This document shows, piece after piece, positions 2,470 to 12,048 of a stretch of 64,000 nt of DNA. A model generated the notes under the pieces. The model was not told where the DNA came from, did not search any database, and saw only the letters and a list, made by a program, of their open reading frames with translations. Location of the stretch: assembly GCA_944389525.1 (NCBI GenBank), contig CALXMR010000001.1, positions 33,698-97,697 on the forward strand, written 5' to 3'. The DNA comes from an uncultured Alphaproteobacteria bacterium. GTDB lineage: Bacteria > Pseudomonadota > Alphaproteobacteria > Rs-D84. Each line of letters begins with the position of its first letter. Positions within the stretch are counted from its first letter, which is position 1. The position numbers were made by a program, and so were the translations under genes.

Positions 2470-4033
2470 TTTTTACTCTTTGCACAACACGTTCTTGTCC
2501 CATAACCTGCATAATCGAATACAAATCCGGGGTATTTGTGCGCCCCGTTACCGCCACACGCAGATTCATCGCAACATCGCCATTTTTAACACCCGCATTT
2601 GCGGCAATCGCAACAATTTTATTCCACCAAGTGTCCTTGTCATCGCAAATATCAAATGTTTCCAAAAACGCGCGCAATAAATCATGATTGAATGCATATT
2701 CAGTATTTGGTGCGAACAAATCGTCCCAGAAATAGGACACTTCATCCAAAGTCTGTTTCCATGTAATAAAATCTTTGCGAATGCGTTTTGGATTATCGCG
2801 TTCAATTGCCAAAATATTTTTCAGATATTCTGGATTACCACCGATTCGCGCCGCCCATATCGAATCGTATTCGTTTGCCCAATCACGAACGCGCCGCACT
2901 AATTCCTCAACCGACATTGTTCCAATAAATTCACGCGCCCACCATTCCAACTTTCTCATATCAAACAGCGCGCCCGACATTGGGATTTTCTTTGGTCGCA
3001 ATTGGTATTCCCAAATATTTTTAACCTGACCTTTGTTTTTTGCCTCTTCATACCCAGATGCCGCAATATTAAACAGATATTCCAACACAGCCTCGACCGG
3101 CCAACCATCGGCCAGAAAGAATGCAACATTCGCCTCGGGGTCATGACGCTTGGATAATTTTCGCTGTTTTCCAGTATCCGCATCAATTTTGTCAATTGTT
3201 GATGTATGAATATACATCGGCGGGGTCCACCCCATCATACGAAACAATTGAACATGCAGCGGGAATGATGGCAACCATTCTTCACCGCGTACAACATGCG
3301 TTGTGCGCATAAAATGATCATCACACAGATGCGCGAAATGATATGTTGGCAAACCATCATTTGATTTAATTAAAACAATATCTTCGTTATTTTCTGGGAA
3401 CCCGATTGAACCACGCACGGCATCTTTACAGAAAATTCGCTGTTGTGGGTTACCGGTCGAATATAAACGAATCGATGGCACATCACCTGCGTCCAGACGG
3501 CGAATTATCTCTTCTTCTGTGATATCACGATCGCGCGCAAATTCACCATAAATGCCGGTGGCAAATCCCGCAGCCTTTTGATTTTCACGAATGCGCGCCA
3601 TCTCGTCCGCGGTCAAAAAGCACGGATACGCCAGCCCACGCGCCAATAAATCCGCCGCCACACTGTGATAAATATCGCGCCGCTGGGACTGGTAATACGG
3701 TCCATATTCTGGGACATCATTATACTGCAATCCGAATCGCTGCATTGAATTTTTTATAATTTCTACGGCATCTGCAACCTCGCGCTTGGTATCCGTATCT
3801 TCGATGCGCAACATAAAGACACCACCCGTATCATACGCCAATTTGCAATCAATCAATGCCTGGTACAGACCACCAATATGCATATATCCTGTTGGACTGG
3901 GTGCAAAGCGCGTTACATACGCACCATCCGGCAAATTGCGTGGCGGGAATTTTTCCTCCAATTCCGCCAAAGTATATTTTGGCGCGCCGCCCAACACACG
4001 TGCAATTAAATCAGCCGATAAACCTTTACGCAT
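2459..4033 (-). CDS. gltX: glutamate--tRNA ligase
   Basis: The class I HIGH motif RFAPSPTGYMHIGG and the KLSKR (KMSKS-type) motif are present. The 524 aa length fits a GluRS. Confidence 0.9.
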   Translation of the reverse strand: MRKGLSADLIARVLGGAPKYTLAELEEKFPPRNLPDGAYVTRFAPSPTGYMHIGGLYQALIDCKLAYDTGGVFMLRIEDTDTKREVADAVEIIKNSMQRFGLQYNDVPEYGPYYQSQRRDIYHSVAADLLARGLAYPCFLTADEMARIRENQKAAGFATGIYGEFARDRDITEEEIIRRLDAGDVPSIRLYSTGNPQQRIFCKDAVRGSIGFPENNEDIVLIKSNDGLPTYHFAHLCDDHFMRTTHVVRGEEWLPSFPLHVQLFRMMGWTPPMYIHTSTIDKIDADTGKQRKLSKRHDPEANVAFFLADGWPVEAVLEYLFNIAASGYEEAKNKGQVKNIWEYQLRPKKIPMSGALFDMRKLEWWAREFIGTMSVEELVRRVRDWANEYDSIWAARIGGNPEYLKNILAIERDNPKRIRKDFITWKQTLDEVSYFWDDLFAPNTEYAFNHDLLRAFLETFDICDDKDTWWNKIVAIAANAGVKNGDVAMNLRVAVTGRTNTPDLYSIMQVMGQERVVQRVKNAI

Positions 4034-4586
4034 TTTTATTTTCCTTTTCCCATTCTGATTTTAATTTCGAATACACCGCAACATCAGTCGATGCATCGCG
4101 CAAAATATACGCACCACGCAAAACACCCTCGGCCACGTATCCGGCACGTTCAGCCACCGCACATGATTTTTTATTGCGCACATCCACGCGAATTTCCACC
4201 CGACGCATTTCCAACATATCAAACGCCAATTTTTCCATCGCACGCACCGCACGCGTCATAATTCCGCGCCCATTATAATCACGCGATAGCCAATACCCAA
4301 TCTCGGCCGTTTTATGGCTTTCAGAAATTCTTACAAAGTCAATCGAACCGACAATTTTACCATCCATAATGATATAGTAATTCGATGTCGTGATTTCAGA
4401 AGACTTCAACAAATGCGGATACATATCTTCTGGGCAATTTGACTTATCCACCCATCCCAACCATTCGGCCATATACTCACGTTGGGAATCCACCAATTCA
4501 AACAGATAACGCGCCGTATCGAACGTTGGCGCGACTTTTTCCAAACGGAAATCACCACAGTCTATTGTTTTTGGAAAATCAGTCAT
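4026..4586 (-). CDS. GNAT family N-acetyltransferase (RimJ/RimL-like)
   Basis: 186 aa with a GNAT acetyl-CoA binding core (..RVEIRVDVRNKKSCAVAERAGYVAEGVLRG..). Confidence 0.7.
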   Translation of the reverse strand: MTDFPKTIDCGDFRLEKVAPTFDTARYLFELVDSQREYMAEWLGWVDKSNCPEDMYPHLLKSSEITTSNYYIIMDGKIVGSIDFVRISESHKTAEIGYWLSRDYNGRGIMTRAVRAMEKLAFDMLEMRRVEIRVDVRNKKSCAVAERAGYVAEGVLRGAYILRDASTDVAVYSKLKSEWEKENKNA

Positions 4587-4632: not shown

Positions 4633-5274
4633 ATGGAAAAACAAGAAATAAGAACATTTGGCCGCAGACACGGCAAAAAATTATCCGCCCGTCAAACAAT
4701 GCTGATTGACCGGGTTTTACCGACAATTTCACCAACAAATTTGCCGGCAAATACCGGTAAAATACTGGAAATTGGTTTTGGTGCGGGCGAACATTTGCGT
4801 GAAATTGCCCGGCAAAACCCGGATAAAATCATAATTGGCGCAGAACCATTTATGAATGGCGTTGCATCATTATTATCGGCAATTACGAACGAATCGAACG
4901 TTGTTCGCGATGAATATAAAAACATTCGCGTATATCCAGACGATGTGCGCGATTTTTTGCGACAAACCGATTCGCAATTTGAACAAATTTGGATTCTGCA
5001 CCCCGACCCCTGGCCCAAGGCACGACACGAAAAACGCCGCCTGTTACATGCCGATTTTTTAAAAAATTTATTAAATTATCTGACCCCAGATGGCGAAATC
5101 ATCATCGGCACTGACCACTGGGAATATTTTGATTGGATTGTTGAAAACGCAAAAAATGCCGGATTACATGCATCCACACCAGATATAAATACCATTCATA
5201 CCCGCTATCAAAATAAAAATATGGCCGGCACATCGGCACCAAAATATCTGGTTATCCACGCCCAACAGAACTAA
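4633..5274 (+). CDS. trmB: tRNA (guanine-N7)-methyltransferase
   Basis: 213 aa with a SAM-binding EIGFGAGEHL motif and the C-terminal organisation typical of TrmB. Confidence 0.8.
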   Translation: MEKQEIRTFGRRHGKKLSARQTMLIDRVLPTISPTNLPANTGKILEIGFGAGEHLREIARQNPDKIIIGAEPFMNGVASLLSAITNESNVVRDEYKNIRVYPDDVRDFLRQTDSQFEQIWILHPDPWPKARHEKRRLLHADFLKNLLNYLTPDGEIIIGTDHWEYFDWIVENAKNAGLHASTPDINTIHTRYQNKNMAGTSAPKYLVIHAQQN

Positions 5275-5920
5275 TAAAAAACATTGTTCGCGATAAATAA
5301 TCTGGGGCAATTAAATGAACCAGACGCGCGACCTGGTCTATGCGCGATGTGGTCAATCCTGTTGCAAAATGTATCATGCCATCAAAATTATTTTCAATCA
5401 CCCCCAGCATGGCATACACGCGCCCAACAAAATCCGAATCATCGCCATTATCGTGTGTCAGTGCCAATATTAGTCCATCTGTGCGTATTTTTTTTAACAG
5501 CCCAAACAACACCGGCCAATCAAATGGTCCTATCTCGTCAATGTCTATCCCGATGAATAAATCTTTGTTAAAAAACAAATCATCCCGAATCAGATGCATC
5601 TGGGATACAAAATCGGCCAAATCACTAAACCGCACAAACAATTGCACCCCATCGGCGCCGCGTTTAAAAACGGTATTTATTTTTTGTGTGATATCCGCCA
5701 CATCCGCCCCCAGGTATAAACGGGCATATATTTTCACCCCCCTGTTTTCCAACCACGGCCATACTGTTGCGACATTTTCTGGCAACATTGATACAATTGG
5801 AATTTTTTGTGCGATAACATTTTCCGCCACGCGCGCCAAATCTGTGGCATCGCCACCACCTGTGCACCACGTGCCTACACATACATTTGTATCCAACAGA
5901 ATATTTTCACCATCTATCAT
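5252..5920 (-). CDS. hypothetical protein (alpha/beta, possibly TIM-barrel-like)
   Basis: 222 aa of coherent, non-low-complexity sequence that I cannot assign to a family by eye. The antisense part of ORF 5340..6911 covers it and is a spurious Ser-rich reading. Confidence 0.5.
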   Translation of the reverse strand: MIDGENILLDTNVCVGTWCTGGGDATDLARVAENVIAQKIPIVSMLPENVATVWPWLENRGVKIYARLYLGADVADITQKINTVFKRGADGVQLFVRFSDLADFVSQMHLIRDDLFFNKDLFIGIDIDEIGPFDWPVLFGLLKKIRTDGLILALTHDNGDDSDFVGRVYAMLGVIENNFDGMIHFATGLTTSRIDQVARLVHLIAPDYLSRTMFFISSVGRG

Positions 5921-5963
5921 TGCACTTTTTACTTTATCACAAATATGTTATAATAAAAAGCAA

Positions 5964-6911
5964 ATGAGAATCCGATACGACAATATTTTACTGGGAATAT
6001 TATGGCTGTTGGCGATGACACTGGGGGCGTCATTCTGGTTTAACACGGCATACAGTTTTGATATATTTTCATCATCGCATTGGCAATATTTATCTTATAT
6101 GCAGGCATCGCGTATGCCGGTACGCGTTGGTTTTTATATATCGATGGTGATTATTATTTTTGCCACGATATTTGGCCTGTATCTGATTGCACGACCAAAA
6201 TTACGCAAAATCAGATTACCAATTATGAAAACGGGTCGCACCACGACACAGCCTGGGGTAAATTCTGACACAAAAATTCAACAATCTGCCCCAGACACCA
6301 CACGGTCAGATGCATCCACGCTGGACCTACTGCCCGCAGAAAACCAGCCGCCACAAACATCTGCGCGCCCCCAGTCGCCATATGCATCCACGCGACCACC
6401 GCGTCTGGTACTGCCAACAACGAATTCTGGGGCTATCCATCCTGCCCCACGCCAGGCTGGCCCCAACATTCAACCCCAGACCACACCCACCCCCCAGCCC
6501 CAAGACTGGCCCGAACTGCGCGAAATTTTTGCATCCGCCGGATATGTGGTAAAACCCGCCCCACGAATAAACGGTATCCAGATTGCACTGTTGGCAATCG
6601 GCACAAATGAAACATTGTGGATTGGTGGCGTTGGTATCAAGACAACGGATATGCGAACCGCCATAGACAGACTGCAACAAATATTTTCCGACACACTGGA
6701 CGAAACATACATAGATGTAACTGGCTTTGTCATTGCGGCCCCAGATGCGGCAACATCTGAATTTACAGACATATTAATGTTTAATTCCATGTCTGAATTA
6801 CGCGAATACATGCGCGATAAATCGAATCCAGTACTGACAGATGACGATGGTATGTTTGATGCATACTCTGACTACATAGATGCGGTAATCAGTCACATAG
6901 GCAAGATATGA
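5964..6911 (+). CDS. hypothetical membrane protein with Pro/Gln/Thr-rich linker and ~130 aa C-terminal domain
   Basis: This is the first ATG (MRIRYDNILLGILWLLAMTLG) after the antisense overlap. Two N-terminal TM helices are followed by a low-complexity P/Q/T-rich spacer (PQTSARPQSPYASTRPPRLVLP..TPTPQPQ). The C-terminal domain then shows an alternating beta/alpha pattern (IQIALLAIGTNETLWIGGVGI..., DVTGFVIAAPD). Confidence 0.5.
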   Translation: MRIRYDNILLGILWLLAMTLGASFWFNTAYSFDIFSSSHWQYLSYMQASRMPVRVGFYISMVIIIFATIFGLYLIARPKLRKIRLPIMKTGRTTTQPGVNSDTKIQQSAPDTTRSDASTLDLLPAENQPPQTSARPQSPYASTRPPRLVLPTTNSGAIHPAPRQAGPNIQPQTTPTPQPQDWPELREIFASAGYVVKPAPRINGIQIALLAIGTNETLWIGGVGIKTTDMRTAIDRLQQIFSDTLDETYIDVTGFVIAAPDAATSEFTDILMFNSMSELREYMRDKSNPVLTDDDGMFDAYSDYIDAVISHIGKI

Positions 6912-7417
6912 AACAACTAACGCGCGATAACGCGGAAAAAAGATTATCAGACATGAATATGGGCGATATGCCTGTGATAGAGTATCGCCCCAACCCGGCG
7001 CGCATTGATTCAGATTGGTTTAAAAAATACAAAAAATTACGGCGCGAATTTATCATGTCGCTGACAGATTCAGTAGAGTTATTGGCGATGATGAACCTGA
7101 CCCAGGATGAATTTATGGCACTTATAATGGGACGCGCATTGCCAGATAATTTTTCACTACGTATGCGAATTCCACTGATATGGGGCGGCGATTTAAGTAT
7201 CGATAACATGTTCATGTGTCGCACATTTCCCCATTCACAAAAACTGGACAAATTTATACTCGACCAATATGGTAACGATATCATCTGGTTGCCGAATCCG
7301 GCCAAGAAAATATATATACCATTACACAACATATCTGGTGGTGACGGCGGAAACGCCACATCAGACAGACTCAGCCAGATTGCCGCGCAAATTGTCGCCA
7401 ATCGCGGCATGGAATAA
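6908..7417 (+). CDS. hypothetical protein (169 aa)
   Basis: Its start overlaps the upstream stop (ATGA), so it is translationally coupled. No family recognised. Confidence 0.45.
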   Translation: MKQLTRDNAEKRLSDMNMGDMPVIEYRPNPARIDSDWFKKYKKLRREFIMSLTDSVELLAMMNLTQDEFMALIMGRALPDNFSLRMRIPLIWGGDLSIDNMFMCRTFPHSQKLDKFILDQYGNDIIWLPNPAKKIYIPLHNISGGDGGNATSDRLSQIAAQIVANRGME

Positions 7418-7419
7418 AC

Positions 7420-7869
7420 ATGGGGGCATACAAAATGACATGCGCAGAATTTTTATCACAAATGAAAACGCACGGCGCATATATCGCGCCCCCGATGCCC
7501 CAGAATAATACTCTGATTGCGACAACCAACTTGCAACAACTGCGTGTGGCAATGTTGCCGAAATTTATGATTGAACTGTATTCGCAATGTGGCGGATTAA
7601 TACTGGATACCGGGTATATATTCGGTCCGTCTGAAATTAATCGTGGCAAGAATTACCCTGTGCCAGATATTGTCCAGATTAATCGCGATACCGCGGGCAT
7701 ACTGGCACTGTGCGGTAAAACAATTTTTGGCCGCAATGATTTATTTTTGTTTGCGTTTGATTCATTTGGTGTGTGTCAAATGCTGGATAACATAACACTG
7801 GCGGCGATGCGCACATACGATGATCCATGGCGCGCAATGACCGACTGTTTAATCGCGGGAAAATTATAA
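7420..7869 (+). CDS. SUKH (SMI1/KNR4)-like protein
   Basis: 149 aa with LPKFMIELYSQCGGL, IFGPSEI and LFAFDSFG segments. These resemble the LPxxYxxFLxxxNGG, IFg and aFa.dg.G blocks of SUKH-1 immunity-type proteins. It starts 2 nt after the upstream stop. Confidence 0.45.
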   Translation: MGAYKMTCAEFLSQMKTHGAYIAPPMPQNNTLIATTNLQQLRVAMLPKFMIELYSQCGGLILDTGYIFGPSEINRGKNYPVPDIVQINRDTAGILALCGKTIFGRNDLFLFAFDSFGVCQMLDNITLAAMRTYDDPWRAMTDCLIAGKL

Positions 7870-7874
7870 TAACA

Positions 7875-8081
7875 ATGAAAAAACTGTCTGTATCTTTATC
7901 AGGTCACCAAACCAGCATTTCACTGGAACCAGAATTCATTGATGCATTACACAAAATCGCAATGCGCGAAAAAAAATCTGTGGCATCAATTATTGAACAG
8001 ATTGACGCGGCGCGCCATGCTGATGAAAACTTGTCATCTGCGATACGCGTTTGGATTTTCAAAAAATGCTGTATATGCTGA
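7875..8081 (+). CDS. ribbon-helix-helix domain protein
   Basis: MKKLSVSLSGHQTSISLEPEFIDALHKIAMREKKSVASIIEQIDAARHADENLSSAIRVWIF matches the conserved small alphaproteobacterial RHH family (SLSGHRTSISLE...NLSSAIRV). Confidence 0.6.
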   Translation: MKKLSVSLSGHQTSISLEPEFIDALHKIAMREKKSVASIIEQIDAARHADENLSSAIRVWIFKKCCIC

Positions 8082-8104
8082 AAATAATGCATATACAGCG
8101 ATTT

Positions 8105-10114
8105 TTAATCTCTCTTTTTTACTAAATCAATACCTATTACCATCACGCACGAAAACAGCAATATTATTATCATCCAACCATCACGTCCCAACGCACGATA
8201 CGGCGTTATATGTGCACCCGCCACAGTATCATCGGCATAGCCTGATGCACCGATTGGAATTGCTGATTTAATCGTACCATCCGCCCCCACAAATGCACTG
8301 ATACCCGAATAATTTGCACGAACAATCGGCAGCCCCGATTCGATTGCATACCGGCGAACCATATCCAGGTGTTGATATGTTCCCGGTGTTCGCCCAAACC
8401 ATGTGTCATTTGTAATATTAACAATTGCATCTGGCATTTGATTCATTGGCACCAACGAATCGGAAAACACAATTTCATAACATATTGCCGGCGCGAACGA
8501 AAAATTATGCCCACCAACATCAATATTTATCACAGTTGGTCCGTTACCTGGGGTTAACTGGCCCGGTGTTGGAATTAAATCACCAAATGGTCTGTATTCG
8601 CCGAACGGCACCAGGTGTGATTTACTGTATACATGTTGTATTACGCCATTTTTGTTGGCAACAATCATGGAATTAAATAACCCATCCCCAGAATACGATG
8701 TAGCACCCAATATTATAGTTTTATCCAACGCATCTGCCATTGGGATGTTATCACCATCAACAATAACAAACGGATACGATGTTTCTGGGAAAACGATTAA
8801 ATCAGGATTTCCATTTTTTTCCGCCAATGACATCAGCGAATTTATATTCGCAACCGCATTTCGCATGGCGTCTTCGCGGGAATGAGACGCTTTTTGCGTC
8901 GCGCTGCGCGCTGGCTGTATCACCCGGATAACAGGTGACGAATTATTTTCATGCGCCGCCTGTATTATATTTTCGCGCCCCGCGCATATTCCACAGATTA
9001 CCAATACCACAAACAGCCCCAACACACCCCAAGACAATTTACTGCGGCGATTTGATAAGACTTCTGCCACGGCGGCAATCAGTCCGATTATAACAAAGGT
9101 TAACCCCAACGCCCCCCACAGCGACATAGAATTCGCTATTACAGGATATGGCAACATAATATTTGCAATCGGGTTCCACGGAAATCCGGTCAACAACCAT
9201 TCACGCAACCACAGAACAAATGTCCATGTGGCGGCGAACAAAAATGGTCTGCATGCCGGAAATGTGCGTATACACGAAATAACAACAAACGGCACAGAAA
9301 ATATAACCGCCCCCACGATACCAATTCCCACCAATGCAGGCACGGTCCACACAGCGAATTGTTCGGCCAATTCTGGGACAACATATATAGAATTCAAAAC
9401 CCACCAAAACATTGCCATGGCATAGGCCGCGCCAAACGGTGCGGTTCGCCAAAACACGCCCAAAAAACCACCAGGCACACTGCGTGTGGCCATTTTATAC
9501 GCCGCCGCAATTGCCAACATTGTCGCCCACCACATATTAAACGGCGCAAACCCCAGTGAGGCAATTGCCCCCAATACAAACATTATTGTCCCAGGTATAA
9601 TGCCACTTGTTGGGATTTTTAACTTGCGCAAACGCGACAAAAATTTTTGTCCTGGGCAACATGATAAATCGCTGCATACGGCGGAATCGTGCACATAGGG
9701 ATTTTTTATACCCAATTGTTTTAATATTTTCACTTCGGTATTTTCCATAATTTTTGCATCGTTATCATCTATGTGGTCATAGCCTTGCAGATGTAACATT
9801 CCATGCACAACCATATGCGCCACATGGTCTGTAACAGGTATATTTTCTTCCCCTGCCTCGCGCAGTACTGTATCCAGCGATATATAAATATCACCCAGTA
9901 AAATATCGTCCCCCAGTTCAAAAGACAAAACATTTGTCGGTCTGTCAATATCACGATATTTTTTATTCAGCGCATGTATTTCTGCATCATTCGTCAGCGT
10001 AATCGAAACTTCGGCACACGGTGCAACATCAATCGCCGCGGCGCACGCCACGCGTTCAAAGTCAATTTTATATTTACGCCACCGCGCATCATTATAGTTA
10101 ACACATACTTTCAT
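8105..10114 (-). CDS. fusion ORF: endoribonuclease YbeY (N-terminal ~150 aa) joined in frame to apolipoprotein N-acyltransferase Lnt (~500 aa)
   Basis: The N-terminus carries the YbeY zinc motif HGMLHLQGYDH. After a short linker come the Lnt transmembrane region and CN-hydrolase domain (LVPFGEYRPFGDL, APAICYEIVF, NITNDTWFG). The six-frame track shows a single uninterrupted frame. Confidence 0.8.
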   Translation of the reverse strand: MKVCVNYNDARWRKYKIDFERVACAAAIDVAPCAEVSITLTNDAEIHALNKKYRDIDRPTNVLSFELGDDILLGDIYISLDTVLREAGEENIPVTDHVAHMVVHGMLHLQGYDHIDDNDAKIMENTEVKILKQLGIKNPYVHDSAVCSDLSCCPGQKFLSRLRKLKIPTSGIIPGTIMFVLGAIASLGFAPFNMWWATMLAIAAAYKMATRSVPGGFLGVFWRTAPFGAAYAMAMFWWVLNSIYVVPELAEQFAVWTVPALVGIGIVGAVIFSVPFVVISCIRTFPACRPFLFAATWTFVLWLREWLLTGFPWNPIANIMLPYPVIANSMSLWGALGLTFVIIGLIAAVAEVLSNRRSKLSWGVLGLFVVLVICGICAGRENIIQAAHENNSSPVIRVIQPARSATQKASHSREDAMRNAVANINSLMSLAEKNGNPDLIVFPETSYPFVIVDGDNIPMADALDKTIILGATSYSGDGLFNSMIVANKNGVIQHVYSKSHLVPFGEYRPFGDLIPTPGQLTPGNGPTVINIDVGGHNFSFAPAICYEIVFSDSLVPMNQMPDAIVNITNDTWFGRTPGTYQHLDMVRRYAIESGLPIVRANYSGISAFVGADGTIKSAIPIGASGYADDTVAGAHITPYRALGRDGWMIIILLFSCVMVIGIDLVKKRD

Positions 10115-10128
10115 TTTTATTACACCTG

Positions 10129-12048
10129 TTATGCTATATAATTTTTATTATGTATAACATCTGCAAAATTCACATCGCCGCGTTTTGATTTTAGATTATC
10201 TGCACTACGATTAAACGCTGTCAGTTCTTTATCTTTTATTTTTTTACGCAACCGATTGACATCATTTTGTACGCGCCGATTACCATTCGCAACAGACAAT
10301 TCATAATTTTTCAGTGCCCGTTTAAAATCCCCCTGTCGTTCATATGCATACCCAGCATTATACTGTGCGGCGGCATATTGACTTTTGTCTGCGATACGAT
10401 ACAGAACCTCACGCGCCTGGCTGATTGCATCATCATAGCGCCCCAACTGGTTATAAGTCGCCGCCAAATCATTACGCAACAATGCGTTATCAGGATAATC
10501 ATGAACCATTTTTTCAAAACGCATCGCGGCCACAGTATATTGTTCTGTTTTATACGATGCGATTGCATTTTTATACGCCTCATCATACCCGATGACATAT
10601 GTTTCTGTTTCAACAGCGGCCTTGTTTTCCGCCAGTTTTGCAAATTCTTTATTTCCCAACGCGCATTCCCCAGTACTGCAAAACGCTAAAATATCTGACG
10701 GTAAATAGTTACTGACTTTGGGCCAATTTTTCAACGATTGGTTTCGTTCATTTTTTGGATTTTCCAGCCATTGTTTAAACACTTCATATGTTTTTTTATT
10801 CACACGGCGATTATTTTCATCACCTGTAAAGAACGCACTTTTCTTTTGTCCCATGACCTTAAAGAATTCGTACATTCCATTAACTGGGCAATCCAGCAAC
10901 ATTTGTGGCATTATATCACCGGTCAGTAATCCTGCCTCTAACCAGCGGCGCCAATATAATCCGCGCCCCCCTGCCAAGAATCCACCCAATTTATCTGCGA
11001 CCGTATTTATATCCGCATGCCCCAACCATGCCTTGCCGAAACTGGTGGCATCTGTTATCGGATACTTGGCAAAAACATTTTTAACCAGACTGTCTGGAAC
11101 CGCATATCCATATTCATCATACAATTTACGCAATTCATCAAAGCGCATTTGATGGTTTTTATCCCGCGGGTTTTCGATTAATTTTGAATATGCATTATAT
11201 ACAACCGAACTCATCCCCAGTGCTTCATTAGTTGTATTTATATCAACTGCACCATTTGCGACATCATAACAATATAGAACAAAGTAAGTTTCACCATCTT
11301 CCAGATGCCAACGCGCCAGTTCATATGCCTCGTCCGTGGTCATGGGCGGTGTATCCATGGTAACCCGGCTGCCATCTTTCAACATCGTAGATCCAAATCC
11401 GATTGTTGGTATCCCACGCGAATCGCGATATGGCACATGCATACCATTTTCATCGACATGTACCCCTTCTTTGACAATCAGGTCTGCGATCAGGAACGGT
11501 GTTATCGGCCGCATTTTATCCAAAAACGCCTTGTATGTACCGCGGGCTTGGTTTTCTGCCTGGTCATCAATTTTCCATTCTTTATATTCTTGGAATAAAT
11601 CTGGCCCATATTGGGTTGCCACCCGTCCACCCCCAATCAAAGACGCCAACATAAAATACCACAAAATATGTGCCGACAAATTCGGATATTTTTTTGCAAA
11701 ACTGGATAATTTTTTTTGCTTGCCGCGTTTATTTTTTCCGACATTTAACTGTGCAAATTTTTCTTCCATTTTGCGCAACGCCGCATTATCCAGCGTCAAC
11801 CATCGCGCCAGCATTAACAGAAATTGCGCCCCACCCGCCGCCAGCCATGCCGCGCCCTTGGCGGTCCGCAATCCCATAATCGCCGCCGCATCTTTTATTT
11901 CAGCGTTTTCGTCAATTTGATTTGCCGCATTTTTTGCAGTACGACGCGCCCGAATATATTCAACTGGATTTTTTTCGGCAATTTTCTGGCGCAATTTTTT
12001 TGCTGCTTCCTCTGGCGTTGCGACAATTTTTCTAAATTTTTCTGCCAT
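10129..12048 (-). CDS. membrane-anchored lysozyme-like (GH24-type) protein with C-terminal TPR repeats
   Basis: 639 aa with one hydrophobic segment (AHILWYFMLASLIGGG). The segment KEGVHVDENGMHVPYRDSRGIPTIGFGST matches the catalytic E...D..G..TIG.G block of phage-type GH24 muramidases. C-terminal TPR-like repeats are present (YNQLGRYDDAISQAREVL; YNAGYAYERQGDFKRALKNYELS). Confidence 0.6.
   Translation of the reverse strand: MAEKFRKIVATPEEAAKKLRQKIAEKNPVEYIRARRTAKNAANQIDENAEIKDAAAIMGLRTAKGAAWLAAGGAQFLLMLARWLTLDNAALRKMEEKFAQLNVGKNKRGKQKKLSSFAKKYPNLSAHILWYFMLASLIGGGRVATQYGPDLFQEYKEWKIDDQAENQARGTYKAFLDKMRPITPFLIADLIVKEGVHVDENGMHVPYRDSRGIPTIGFGSTMLKDGSRVTMDTPPMTTDEAYELARWHLEDGETYFVLYCYDVANGAVDINTTNEALGMSSVVYNAYSKLIENPRDKNHQMRFDELRKLYDEYGYAVPDSLVKNVFAKYPITDATSFGKAWLGHADINTVADKLGGFLAGGRGLYWRRWLEAGLLTGDIMPQMLLDCPVNGMYEFFKVMGQKKSAFFTGDENNRRVNKKTYEVFKQWLENPKNERNQSLKNWPKVSNYLPSDILAFCSTGECALGNKEFAKLAENKAAVETETYVIGYDEAYKNAIASYKTEQYTVAAMRFEKMVHDYPDNALLRNDLAATYNQLGRYDDAISQAREVLYRIADKSQYAAAQYNAGYAYERQGDFKRALKNYELSVANGNRRVQNDVNRLRKKIKDKELTAFNRSADNLKSKRGDVNFADVIHNKNYIA

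Follow-up and report, generated by a model that had tools for sequence, protein, structure and literature searches.

In E. coli K-12, the gene for YhhZ, a "putative endonuclease", is followed by yrhA, which overlaps its end. A comparable pair is carried by the Salmonella IncHI2 plasmid pMS114_1 (locus L055, 7827–8918), where genes for an HNH endonuclease and a YrhA-family protein adjoin Tra2 genes encoding a TraG N-terminal domain protein and TrhH; among 458 records with an HNH match, the YrhA neighbor and Tra2 context were seen in one plasmid (IncHI2A replicon). YhhZ presumably belongs to the Hcp-ET1 class. Hcp-fused HNH DNases (Hcp-ET1) are type VI secretion system effectors in E. coli (PMC6730261), and SUKH proteins are named as immunity partners for most HNH toxin families in the parts of a polymorphic-toxin survey drawn on here (PMC3482391). 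In this work, we describe an operon of four genes, g1–g4, at positions 5964–8081 on the forward strand of a 64,000-nucleotide (nt) stretch, referred to in the following as the window, of contig CALXMR010000001.1 from an uncultured gut alphaproteobacterium of the order Rs-D84 (Candidatus Enterousia type). Its second and third genes, g2 and g3, keep the order of the YhhZ/YrhA and IncHI2 pairs, in which an HNH-domain gene directly precedes or overlaps a YrhA/SUKH gene. Our preferred reading, to which we give an even chance, is that the operon encodes a domesticated, non-catalytic nuclease–inhibitor complex that is vertically inherited, tethered to the inner membrane and controlled by a ribbon-helix-helix (RHH) protein, and whose function we infer.

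The window differs from the described pairs in several respects. Unlike YhhZ, g2 is a stand-alone protein of 169 amino acids (aa) that lacks the N-terminal ≈250 aa. Unlike both YhhZ and the IncHI2 HNH protein, it has R, M, S and D in place of the HH dyad and both helix histidines, and carries an extra, invariant GGDGGNATxDRL tail. In addition, g2 and g3 share a conserved operon with a gene of the RHH_4 family and g1. Like the polymorphic toxin systems described by Zhang et al. (2012), in which HNH/EndoVII toxins go with Imm-SUKH immunity proteins, g2–g3 combine a nuclease-fold domain with a SUKH protein, encoded directly downstream where an immunity gene would be found. In contrast to those systems, g1–g4 have no N-terminal trafficking domain, no cassette variability or variable tips, no polyimmunity array and no mobile distribution; the active site of g2 has been lost, inheritance is vertical and core-like, and the relatives described here adjoin a type IV coupling protein. 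The export routes given in the toxin table of the survey are type II, V, VI and VII secretion, among others; type IV secretion is not among the table entries covered, and the phrase "type IV secretion" is absent from the main text (PMC3482391).

All four co-directional open reading frames (ORFs) were confirmed, and they form a tightly packed operon that is closed by a strong hairpin terminator:

g1: 5964..6911, forward strand; inner-membrane protein, 315 aa
g2: 6908..7417, forward strand; cytoplasmic protein, 169 aa, built around a ββα core of the HNH / His-Me finger type
g3: 7435..7869, forward strand; SUKH-fold protein, 144 aa from its probable start (the ORF opens at 7420)
g4: 7875..8081, forward strand; ribbon-helix-helix protein of the RHH_4 family, 68 aa; closes the operon

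The stop codon of g1 overlaps the start of g2 as ATGA (6908–6911), and an overlap of 1 or 4 nt is also found in the related loci L001, L004, L010 and L053. The gene for g4 is 7875..8081 rather than the longer ORF from 7827, and starts 5 nt after the stop of g3; the corresponding distance is 0–27 nt in the window, L001, L004, L010, L047 and L051, which represent four genomic contexts. Homologue clusters are numerous (205 for g1, 584 for g2 and 159 for g3). Their sources are without exception uncultured Alphaproteobacteria, a number of which bear the name Candidatus Enterousia or "Rickettsiales bacterium". The gene order is kept in every related locus examined. A reading of g1–g4 as chance ORFs was therefore rejected. 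In scans of the window proteins against Pfam, NCBIfam, PADLOC and PHROG, RHH_4 alone scored above threshold.

An earlier reading of this DNA, made from the sequence only, had described g1 as a protein with two transmembrane (TM) segments, a P/Q/T-rich spacer and a C-terminal domain, overlapping a 169-aa ORF through ATGA, and hydropathy, linker composition and the ORF map agree. It had also held the coupled genes to be a functional unit. It placed a 149-aa ORF 2 nt after g2. This ORF does open at 7420, but in a 31-sequence alignment nearly all of the 30 homologues start at the position of its Met6, and most have 144 aa, so that the start is probably at 7435 and the spacer 17 nt rather than 2. 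The RHH gene that it saw as adjacent does follow, yet as a full member of the operon, with its position kept across loci. Of the checks that it had proposed, the profile search returned only RHH_4 above threshold, with a weak YrhA match for g3 and none for g1 or g2, and the comparison of neighborhoods found the operon conserved and syntenic in related genomes. It had noticed neither that g2 has an HNH fold and g1 a NERD-like domain, nor that sister lineages show a link to a type IV coupling protein.

The core of g2 (aa 82–118, 7151–7261) has the ββα-metal fold of the HNH / His-Me finger nucleases. DNases of the colicin E7/E9 type draw their general base and one metal ligand from the HH dyad, and a pair of histidines in the helix binds the metal. 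The general-base histidine and the metal ligands (H-N-H, or HH...N...H...H in colicin-type DNases) are missing from g2: R85, M86, S110 and D114 occupy the catalytic and metal-binding His positions, and the asparagine, N100, is the only residue kept. The 26 aligned g2 homologues all carry R85, R87, N100 and D114 and differ from one another at position 109. The C-terminal GGDGGNATxDRL motif (7337–7372) was modeled as a low-confidence loop preceding the final helix; it has no counterpart in the enterobacterial proteins, and its GG....D core is common to all alphaproteobacterial forms. The protein consists of the HNH-like domain by itself, with no trafficking or secretion domain attached, and its orthologues, one per locus, have a constant length of 166–170 aa.

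When the g2 profile was compared with 1.8 billion representative proteins, 75 matches were obtained, among them proteins of 180–433 aa with a C-terminal g2-like domain (hidden Markov model (HMM) E 1e-7 to 1e-15), referred to here as long forms. These start with MWDW[ST]G.K in 36 of 37 cases, followed in the six that were inspected by a low-complexity, mostly P/Q-rich linker. The dyad of all 37 starts with H and has I, V, L, R, M or Q in second place, with the other three histidines kept; since its second histidine is replaced, the general base is gone from the long forms as well. Their domain aligns with residues 251–385 of E. coli K-12 YhhZ (hhalign probability 98.6%, E 7e-16), and they match a 191-aa "HNH endonuclease" found on 458 mostly conjugative enterobacterial plasmids. 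The IncHI2 version of that protein passes the Pfam HNH model (24.7 bits vs. 21.4), whose gathering score was reached neither by g2 nor by the long forms. The dyad region of the enterobacterial HNH proteins reads VHHK. The DNase of pyocin AP41 was the sole PDB sequence match of the long-form profile, and aligned in motif register.

A comparison of the g2 family with the IncHI2 HNH protein gave an hhalign probability of 80% (E 1.4e-5), with R85–M86 falling on the HH dyad. The direct comparison with YhhZ was not significant, and the profiles of g1, g2 and g3 gave chance-level matches only among PDB sequences; g2 had no match in the phage and plasmid collections or in PADLOC. Most likely, g2 descends from a YhhZ/colicin-type HNH DNase domain to which it is related through intermediates. 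A 1785-aa protein with ≈60-residue tandem repeats (P0377) that gave 17 matches to the g2 profile, all at profile positions 133–154, was ignored as a probable low-complexity artifact.

The long forms occur next to a coupling protein. A genome scan with the long-form alignment identified 34 loci, which together with L009 make up 35 RF32-type loci. All but one of the 34 are from uncultured bacteria, mostly labeled Alphaproteobacteria, and many are gut or rumen metagenome-assembled genomes (e.g., Acetobacter sp. CAG:977; UBA, HGM and RUG bins). In 35/35 RF32-type loci, the gene for a VirD4-type coupling protein is immediately upstream of the long g2, which is followed by a g3-like gene; the ATPase was recognized as such in L012 and L009 (PF02534, PF10412, PF12696) and assigned through sequence clustering in the other loci. 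The ATPase gene is preceded by g1-like genes, usually two, in 33 of the 35 loci, and VirB6/TrbL-like genes are found ≈9 kb upstream in 21. In one additional locus, L057 (GCA_965319345.1, 6555–11537), a g1-like gene, the coupling protein, a long g2 and a g3-like gene are located between PBP1a and BipA/DnaJK, which brings the count of loci in which the coupling protein accompanies the trio to 36/36. No other type IV secretion genes were found within 10 kb in L057, where the coupling-protein module is apparently an orphan among housekeeping genes. The coupling-protein-linked variants have no RHH gene and keep the trio. As the trio is thus accompanied by either the coupling ATPase or RHH_4, it constitutes a stable unit. 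In the 64-kb window, neither a coupling protein nor VirB6 was detected by tblastn, and none of the genes encodes a VirD4/TraG-family ATPase.

In Legionella, the coupling protein DotL has an accessory set consisting of DotM, DotN, IcmS and IcmW. In the sister lineages, as in the DotL sets, a VirD4-type ATPase is surrounded by genes for small soluble partners and for a membrane protein that has a domain in the cytoplasm. Unlike them, the window operon has no ATPase, and the likeness is one of gene arrangement. Two other ORFs were observed in the RF32-type loci. Directly upstream of the coupling protein in L012 (6067–7020), and in equivalent positions elsewhere, is a 317-aa ORF; the L012 product resembles residues 248–366 of the coupling protein (28% over 119 aa, E 9e-9), suggesting that part of the ATPase gene was duplicated. 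L009 encodes a 271-aa protein with many tandem GTITNQPE(N/K)V repeats (3334–4149) between the VirB6-like and g1-like genes.

The g3 protein has the characteristic α/β fold of the SUKH (SMI1/KNR4) superfamily, with Smi1/Knr4 and FBXO3 among its structural matches. The SUKH resemblance first noticed in the sequence therefore holds for the fold. It does not extend to curated sequence cut-offs: the window protein has no match in Pfam and falls short of the SUKH model, SMI1_KNR4 is matched weakly by 10 of 31 g3 homologues (best E 0.022), and the sole NCBIfam match, to the YrhA family (NF038335), covers the full model length with 18.1 bits (E 0.0019) against a cut-off of 55. The proteins in the same position in L012, L009 and L047 score 76.8, 63.7 and 57.3 bits with this model, above the cut-off, indicating that g3 is a divergent YrhA relative rather than a member by the curated rule. 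The gene that follows the g2-like gene belongs to the g3 family (hhalign 91%, with HMM matches), and a g3-type gene is directly downstream of g2 in the window, in all fetched loci of the short form represented by the window and in the 36 coupling-protein loci.

Hydropathy analysis of g1 showed hydrophobic segments at ≈aa 8–26 and 55–77 (≈5985–6041 and 6126–6194). They are followed by a linker (aa 87–180, 6222–6503) with 17 P, 15 T and 11 Q among its 94 residues and by a C-terminal domain of ≈135 aa (6504–6908), which is probably a shortened NERD-like domain. The family alignment shows strong conservation of the membrane domain at the N-terminus and of its periplasmic loop (FNIFSxxHWQYL), and the linker contains the conserved motifs DASTLD and RPPRL. 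No Pfam match was found for g1. The C-terminal domain aligns with that of a coupling-protein-linked paralogue (hhalign probability 92%, E 6e-7) with a deletion of 24 aa in g1; of 14 coupling-protein-linked relatives, four match Pfam NERD (PF08378; best E 2.1e-5), and every short-form g1-like protein matches the NERD-like C-terminal HMM (E 4e-26 to 3e-11). The comparison between the g1 family and the second RF32 paralogue was not significant. Like the NERD membrane proteins, g1 combines an N-terminal membrane anchor with a domain that is predicted to be cytoplasmic and is probably of the PD-(D/E)xK type. It differs from them in that the domain is ≈24 residues shorter, has no Pfam match of its own and lacks a conserved D/E-x-K, a signature that is conserved neither in the g1 alignment nor in that of the coupling-protein-linked relatives.

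Basic residues flank both TM segments of g1 on their N- and C-terminal sides. By the positive-inside rule, both ends of the membrane hairpin should thus be cytoplasmic, and the linker and C-terminal domain are predicted to be in the cytoplasm. With this topology, the four products would all function in or at the cytoplasm, and the envelope-spanning module that had been one of the earlier suggestions was rejected on this prediction.

In contigs where g2 is 66–69% identical, the entire neighborhood is syntenic, in the order GluRS, acetyltransferase, TrmB, a 222-aa gene, g1–g4, YbeY-Lnt, a TPR protein, MucR and MgsA. The identity of g2 is similar to that of YbeY-Lnt (64–66%) and below that of GluRS or MgsA (85–91%). 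In the distant locus L010 (g2 identity 39%), the 222-aa gene, g1, g2, g3, RHH_4 and YbeY-Lnt are kept and the other flanks differ. L047 and L051 have the g1-like gene, g2, g3 and RHH_4 without an ATPase, the former at a site that is not beside ybeY-lnt and the latter between AccAD and AsmA/UvrB, and L045 has g2 and g3 alone. The operon is, as judged by these comparisons, single-copy, vertically inherited and core-like; it is conserved with its synteny across Rs-D84 and is found in three genomic contexts besides. A reading of it as a mobile toxin cassette was rejected on account of the synteny. Candidatus Enterousia belongs to the order Rs-D84, whose members have genomes of less than 1 Mb (PMC12306168), in which retained genes are unlikely to be dispensable.

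The features at the two ends of the operon are as follows:

222-aa gene: 5252..5920, reverse strand; function unassigned, divergent from g1
Divergent intergenic region: 5921..5963, forward strand; 43 bp with a candidate extended −10 promoter and an imperfect inverted repeat
Hairpin: 8062..8106, unstranded; 11-bp stem (GCTGTATATGC / GCATATACAGC) with an A-run on one side and a T-run on the other

The 43-bp region is nearly invariant among the window, L001 and L004, in which the flanking proteins are just 47–57% identical. It contains the candidate extended −10 element TGtTATAAT (5946–5954), ending 9 nt before the ATG of g1, and an imperfect inverted repeat, TATCA-N6-TGtTA, so that the region is a putative promoter and operator. 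A generic promoter scan was uninformative (11 matches vs. 9.9 expected). There is no obvious Shine–Dalgarno sequence before the g1 start, which together with the position of the −10 element suggests a very short or absent leader. At the other end, the hairpin has an RNA folding energy of −19.2 kcal/mol (z −6.2; none of 200 shuffled sequences was equally stable) and is likely to terminate transcription in both directions, from the operon and from the convergent ybeY-lnt gene. No Rfam family was found within 5000–8600. The g4 protein matches Pfam RHH_4 (PF13467) with E 1.5e-21, and no known toxin–antitoxin toxin family was detected beside it in the Pfam, NCBIfam, PADLOC and PHROG scans.

The 222-aa gene adjoins g1 in L001–L006 and in the distant L010 (36% identity). 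It was absent from the other fetched loci that were tested, including the short-form L045–L048; the query covered neither L051 nor L052. Its product has no match in Pfam, NCBIfam, PADLOC or PHROGs. Because the conserved intergenic region is common to both, the gene may be associated with the operon. Downstream of the operon, a 669-aa ORF on the reverse strand (8105–10114) fuses the YbeY endoribonuclease (PF02130) to the apolipoprotein N-acyltransferase Lnt (LNT_N and CN_hydrolase), a fusion that is kept in L001–L006 and L010. Beside it on the same strand (10129–12048) is the gene for a 639-aa protein with a weak phage-lysozyme-like region (aa 204–285, E 3e-4) and C-terminal TPR repeats, which is conserved and syntenic in relatives and adjoins a MucR/Ros gene. 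The remaining window genes are housekeeping genes, including MutL, SecDF, FtsK, RecA and RuvABC.

According to our preferred reading, the core of the system would be a former nuclease-toxin/immunity pair, in which g2 has lost the general-base histidine and all three metal-binding histidines and g3 is its YrhA-type SUKH partner. g2 would no longer cut DNA and may instead serve as a non-catalytic module that binds nucleic acid or protein, with the invariant R85 and R87 in the place of the former active site. g3 would bind g2 and gate its activity, as SUKH immunity proteins bind nucleases, and g1, by means of its long flexible linker and degenerate NERD-like domain, would tether the complex to the inner membrane on the cytoplasmic side. 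The RHH_4 protein would repress the conserved promoter region upstream of g1. Since the trio brackets a VirD4-type ATPase in sister lineages, its ancestral role was probably in a coupling-protein-centered machine for handling DNA or protein, of which the Rs-D84 lineage probably keeps a version without the ATPase in the operon. Several points count against this interpretation. The contacts between g2 and g3 and between g1 and g2, the binding of DNA, the autoregulation by the RHH protein and the biological role are all inferred; the search for a coupling protein covers 64 kb of the genome only; the His-dyad register of the g2 alignment could be shifted by one residue; an active site may be made up of other g2 residues (R85, R87, D114, Q120); and the hhalign comparison between the g3 family and the IncHI2 YrhA protein was not significant.

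In the main rival explanation, the module would belong as an accessory to a type IV secretion or coupling-protein machine whose genes are in another part of the genome, with g1 as the membrane adaptor of the ATPase, g2 as a substrate or recruitment factor, g3 as a chaperone and the RHH protein as a relaxosome-like accessory factor. RHH proteins are common accessory factors of relaxosomes, and this explanation would fit the arrangement of the VirD4-type coupling protein, long g2 and g3-like gene in all 35 RF32-type loci and L057, the VirB6/TrbL-like genes upstream in 21 loci and the related HNH–YrhA pair next to the IncHI2 transfer genes. Yet the ATPase is never inside the short-form operons, in four contexts; the window has neither a coupling protein nor VirB6 among its otherwise housekeeping genes; and the features by which the coupling-protein-linked forms stand out, the N-terminal MWDWSG.K motif and the linker, are missing from the short g2. 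In L057, the module is also among housekeeping genes without further type IV secretion genes within 10 kb, so a complete secretion system is not evident even there, and we regard this rival as unlikely. A broader form of the idea is that g1/g2/g3-like proteins constitute an unrecognized accessory module of a VirD4-type ATPase in gut Alphaproteobacteria, of which Rs-D84 keeps an ATPase-free, RHH-regulated, essential core version; we put this forward tentatively, as a possibility with the chances against it. With the same reserve, the pseudo-nucleases (NERD-like and HNH-like) and the SUKH adaptor might form a platform for handling DNA or substrates rather than a weapon, in Rs-D84 for example in DNA handling at the membrane.

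A working toxin–immunity or addiction module would have g2 toxic in a non-canonical way, for example through tight DNA binding, g3 neutralizing it and the RHH protein autoregulating the operon as in type II toxin–antitoxin systems; the operon would then persist because its loss kills the cell. An HNH-fold gene followed by a SUKH gene is the classic arrangement in the parts of the toxin survey considered (PMC3482391), and the RHH regulator within the operon and the tight translational coupling also suit such a module. We nevertheless consider it improbable, as all four colicin-type histidines have been replaced by invariant residues, trafficking domains, variable C-terminal cassettes and extra immunity genes are lacking, the operon is single-copy, syntenic and conserved like a core gene across an order-level clade, there is no match in PADLOC or the phage and plasmid collections, and toxin–antitoxin systems have nothing that corresponds to the membrane protein g1. 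The single copy, the synteny, the absence of trafficking domains and the dead site likewise show that this is not an active polymorphic toxin cassette. Of the degenerate toxin/immunity cassette that the sequence-only reading had considered, the ancestry survives, with g2 as a degenerate YhhZ-type HNH derivative; the cassette does not, given the single-copy, syntenic and vertical pattern. There is only a slim chance that the operon is a regulatory switch, in which g1 lets the partner-binding g3–g2 pair sense a signal from the membrane or envelope, this pair controls the DNA-binding RHH protein, and g2 has no role with nucleic acid. SUKH domains are versatile protein binders that are also regulatory (Smi1/Knr4 and FBXO3 being among the structural matches of g3), the membrane domain of g1 and its periplasmic loop are strongly conserved, and the RHH gene has a fixed place in the operon. 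However, the coupling-protein-linked variants keep the trio without the RHH gene, so that the trio is independent of it, and no known signaling domain was found in Pfam or NCBIfam.

The component folds are already known. Neither the combination of a NERD-like anchor with a dead HNH domain, SUKH and RHH_4, nor its core-like retention in a minimal genome, nor the linkage of the trio to a type IV coupling protein was found in the curated libraries or the literature searched, and nothing relevant was found in the literature on PF13467 or on secretion systems in Rs-D84 or RF32. As g1, g2 and the 222-aa neighbor belong to no curated family, they would define new families. Pairs of HNH and SUKH proteins are known as weapons in bacterial conflict, yet here the pair has been preserved, in a clade with genomes below 1 Mb, after its catalytic site was lost. 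That a DNA-binding protein and a membrane anchor were retained along with it argues that a former toxin has taken on a new cellular job. The linkage of the trio to the coupling ATPase points to one of two things: partners of coupling proteins that form a new class, or a path along which toxin pairs linked to secretion turn into housekeeping genes.

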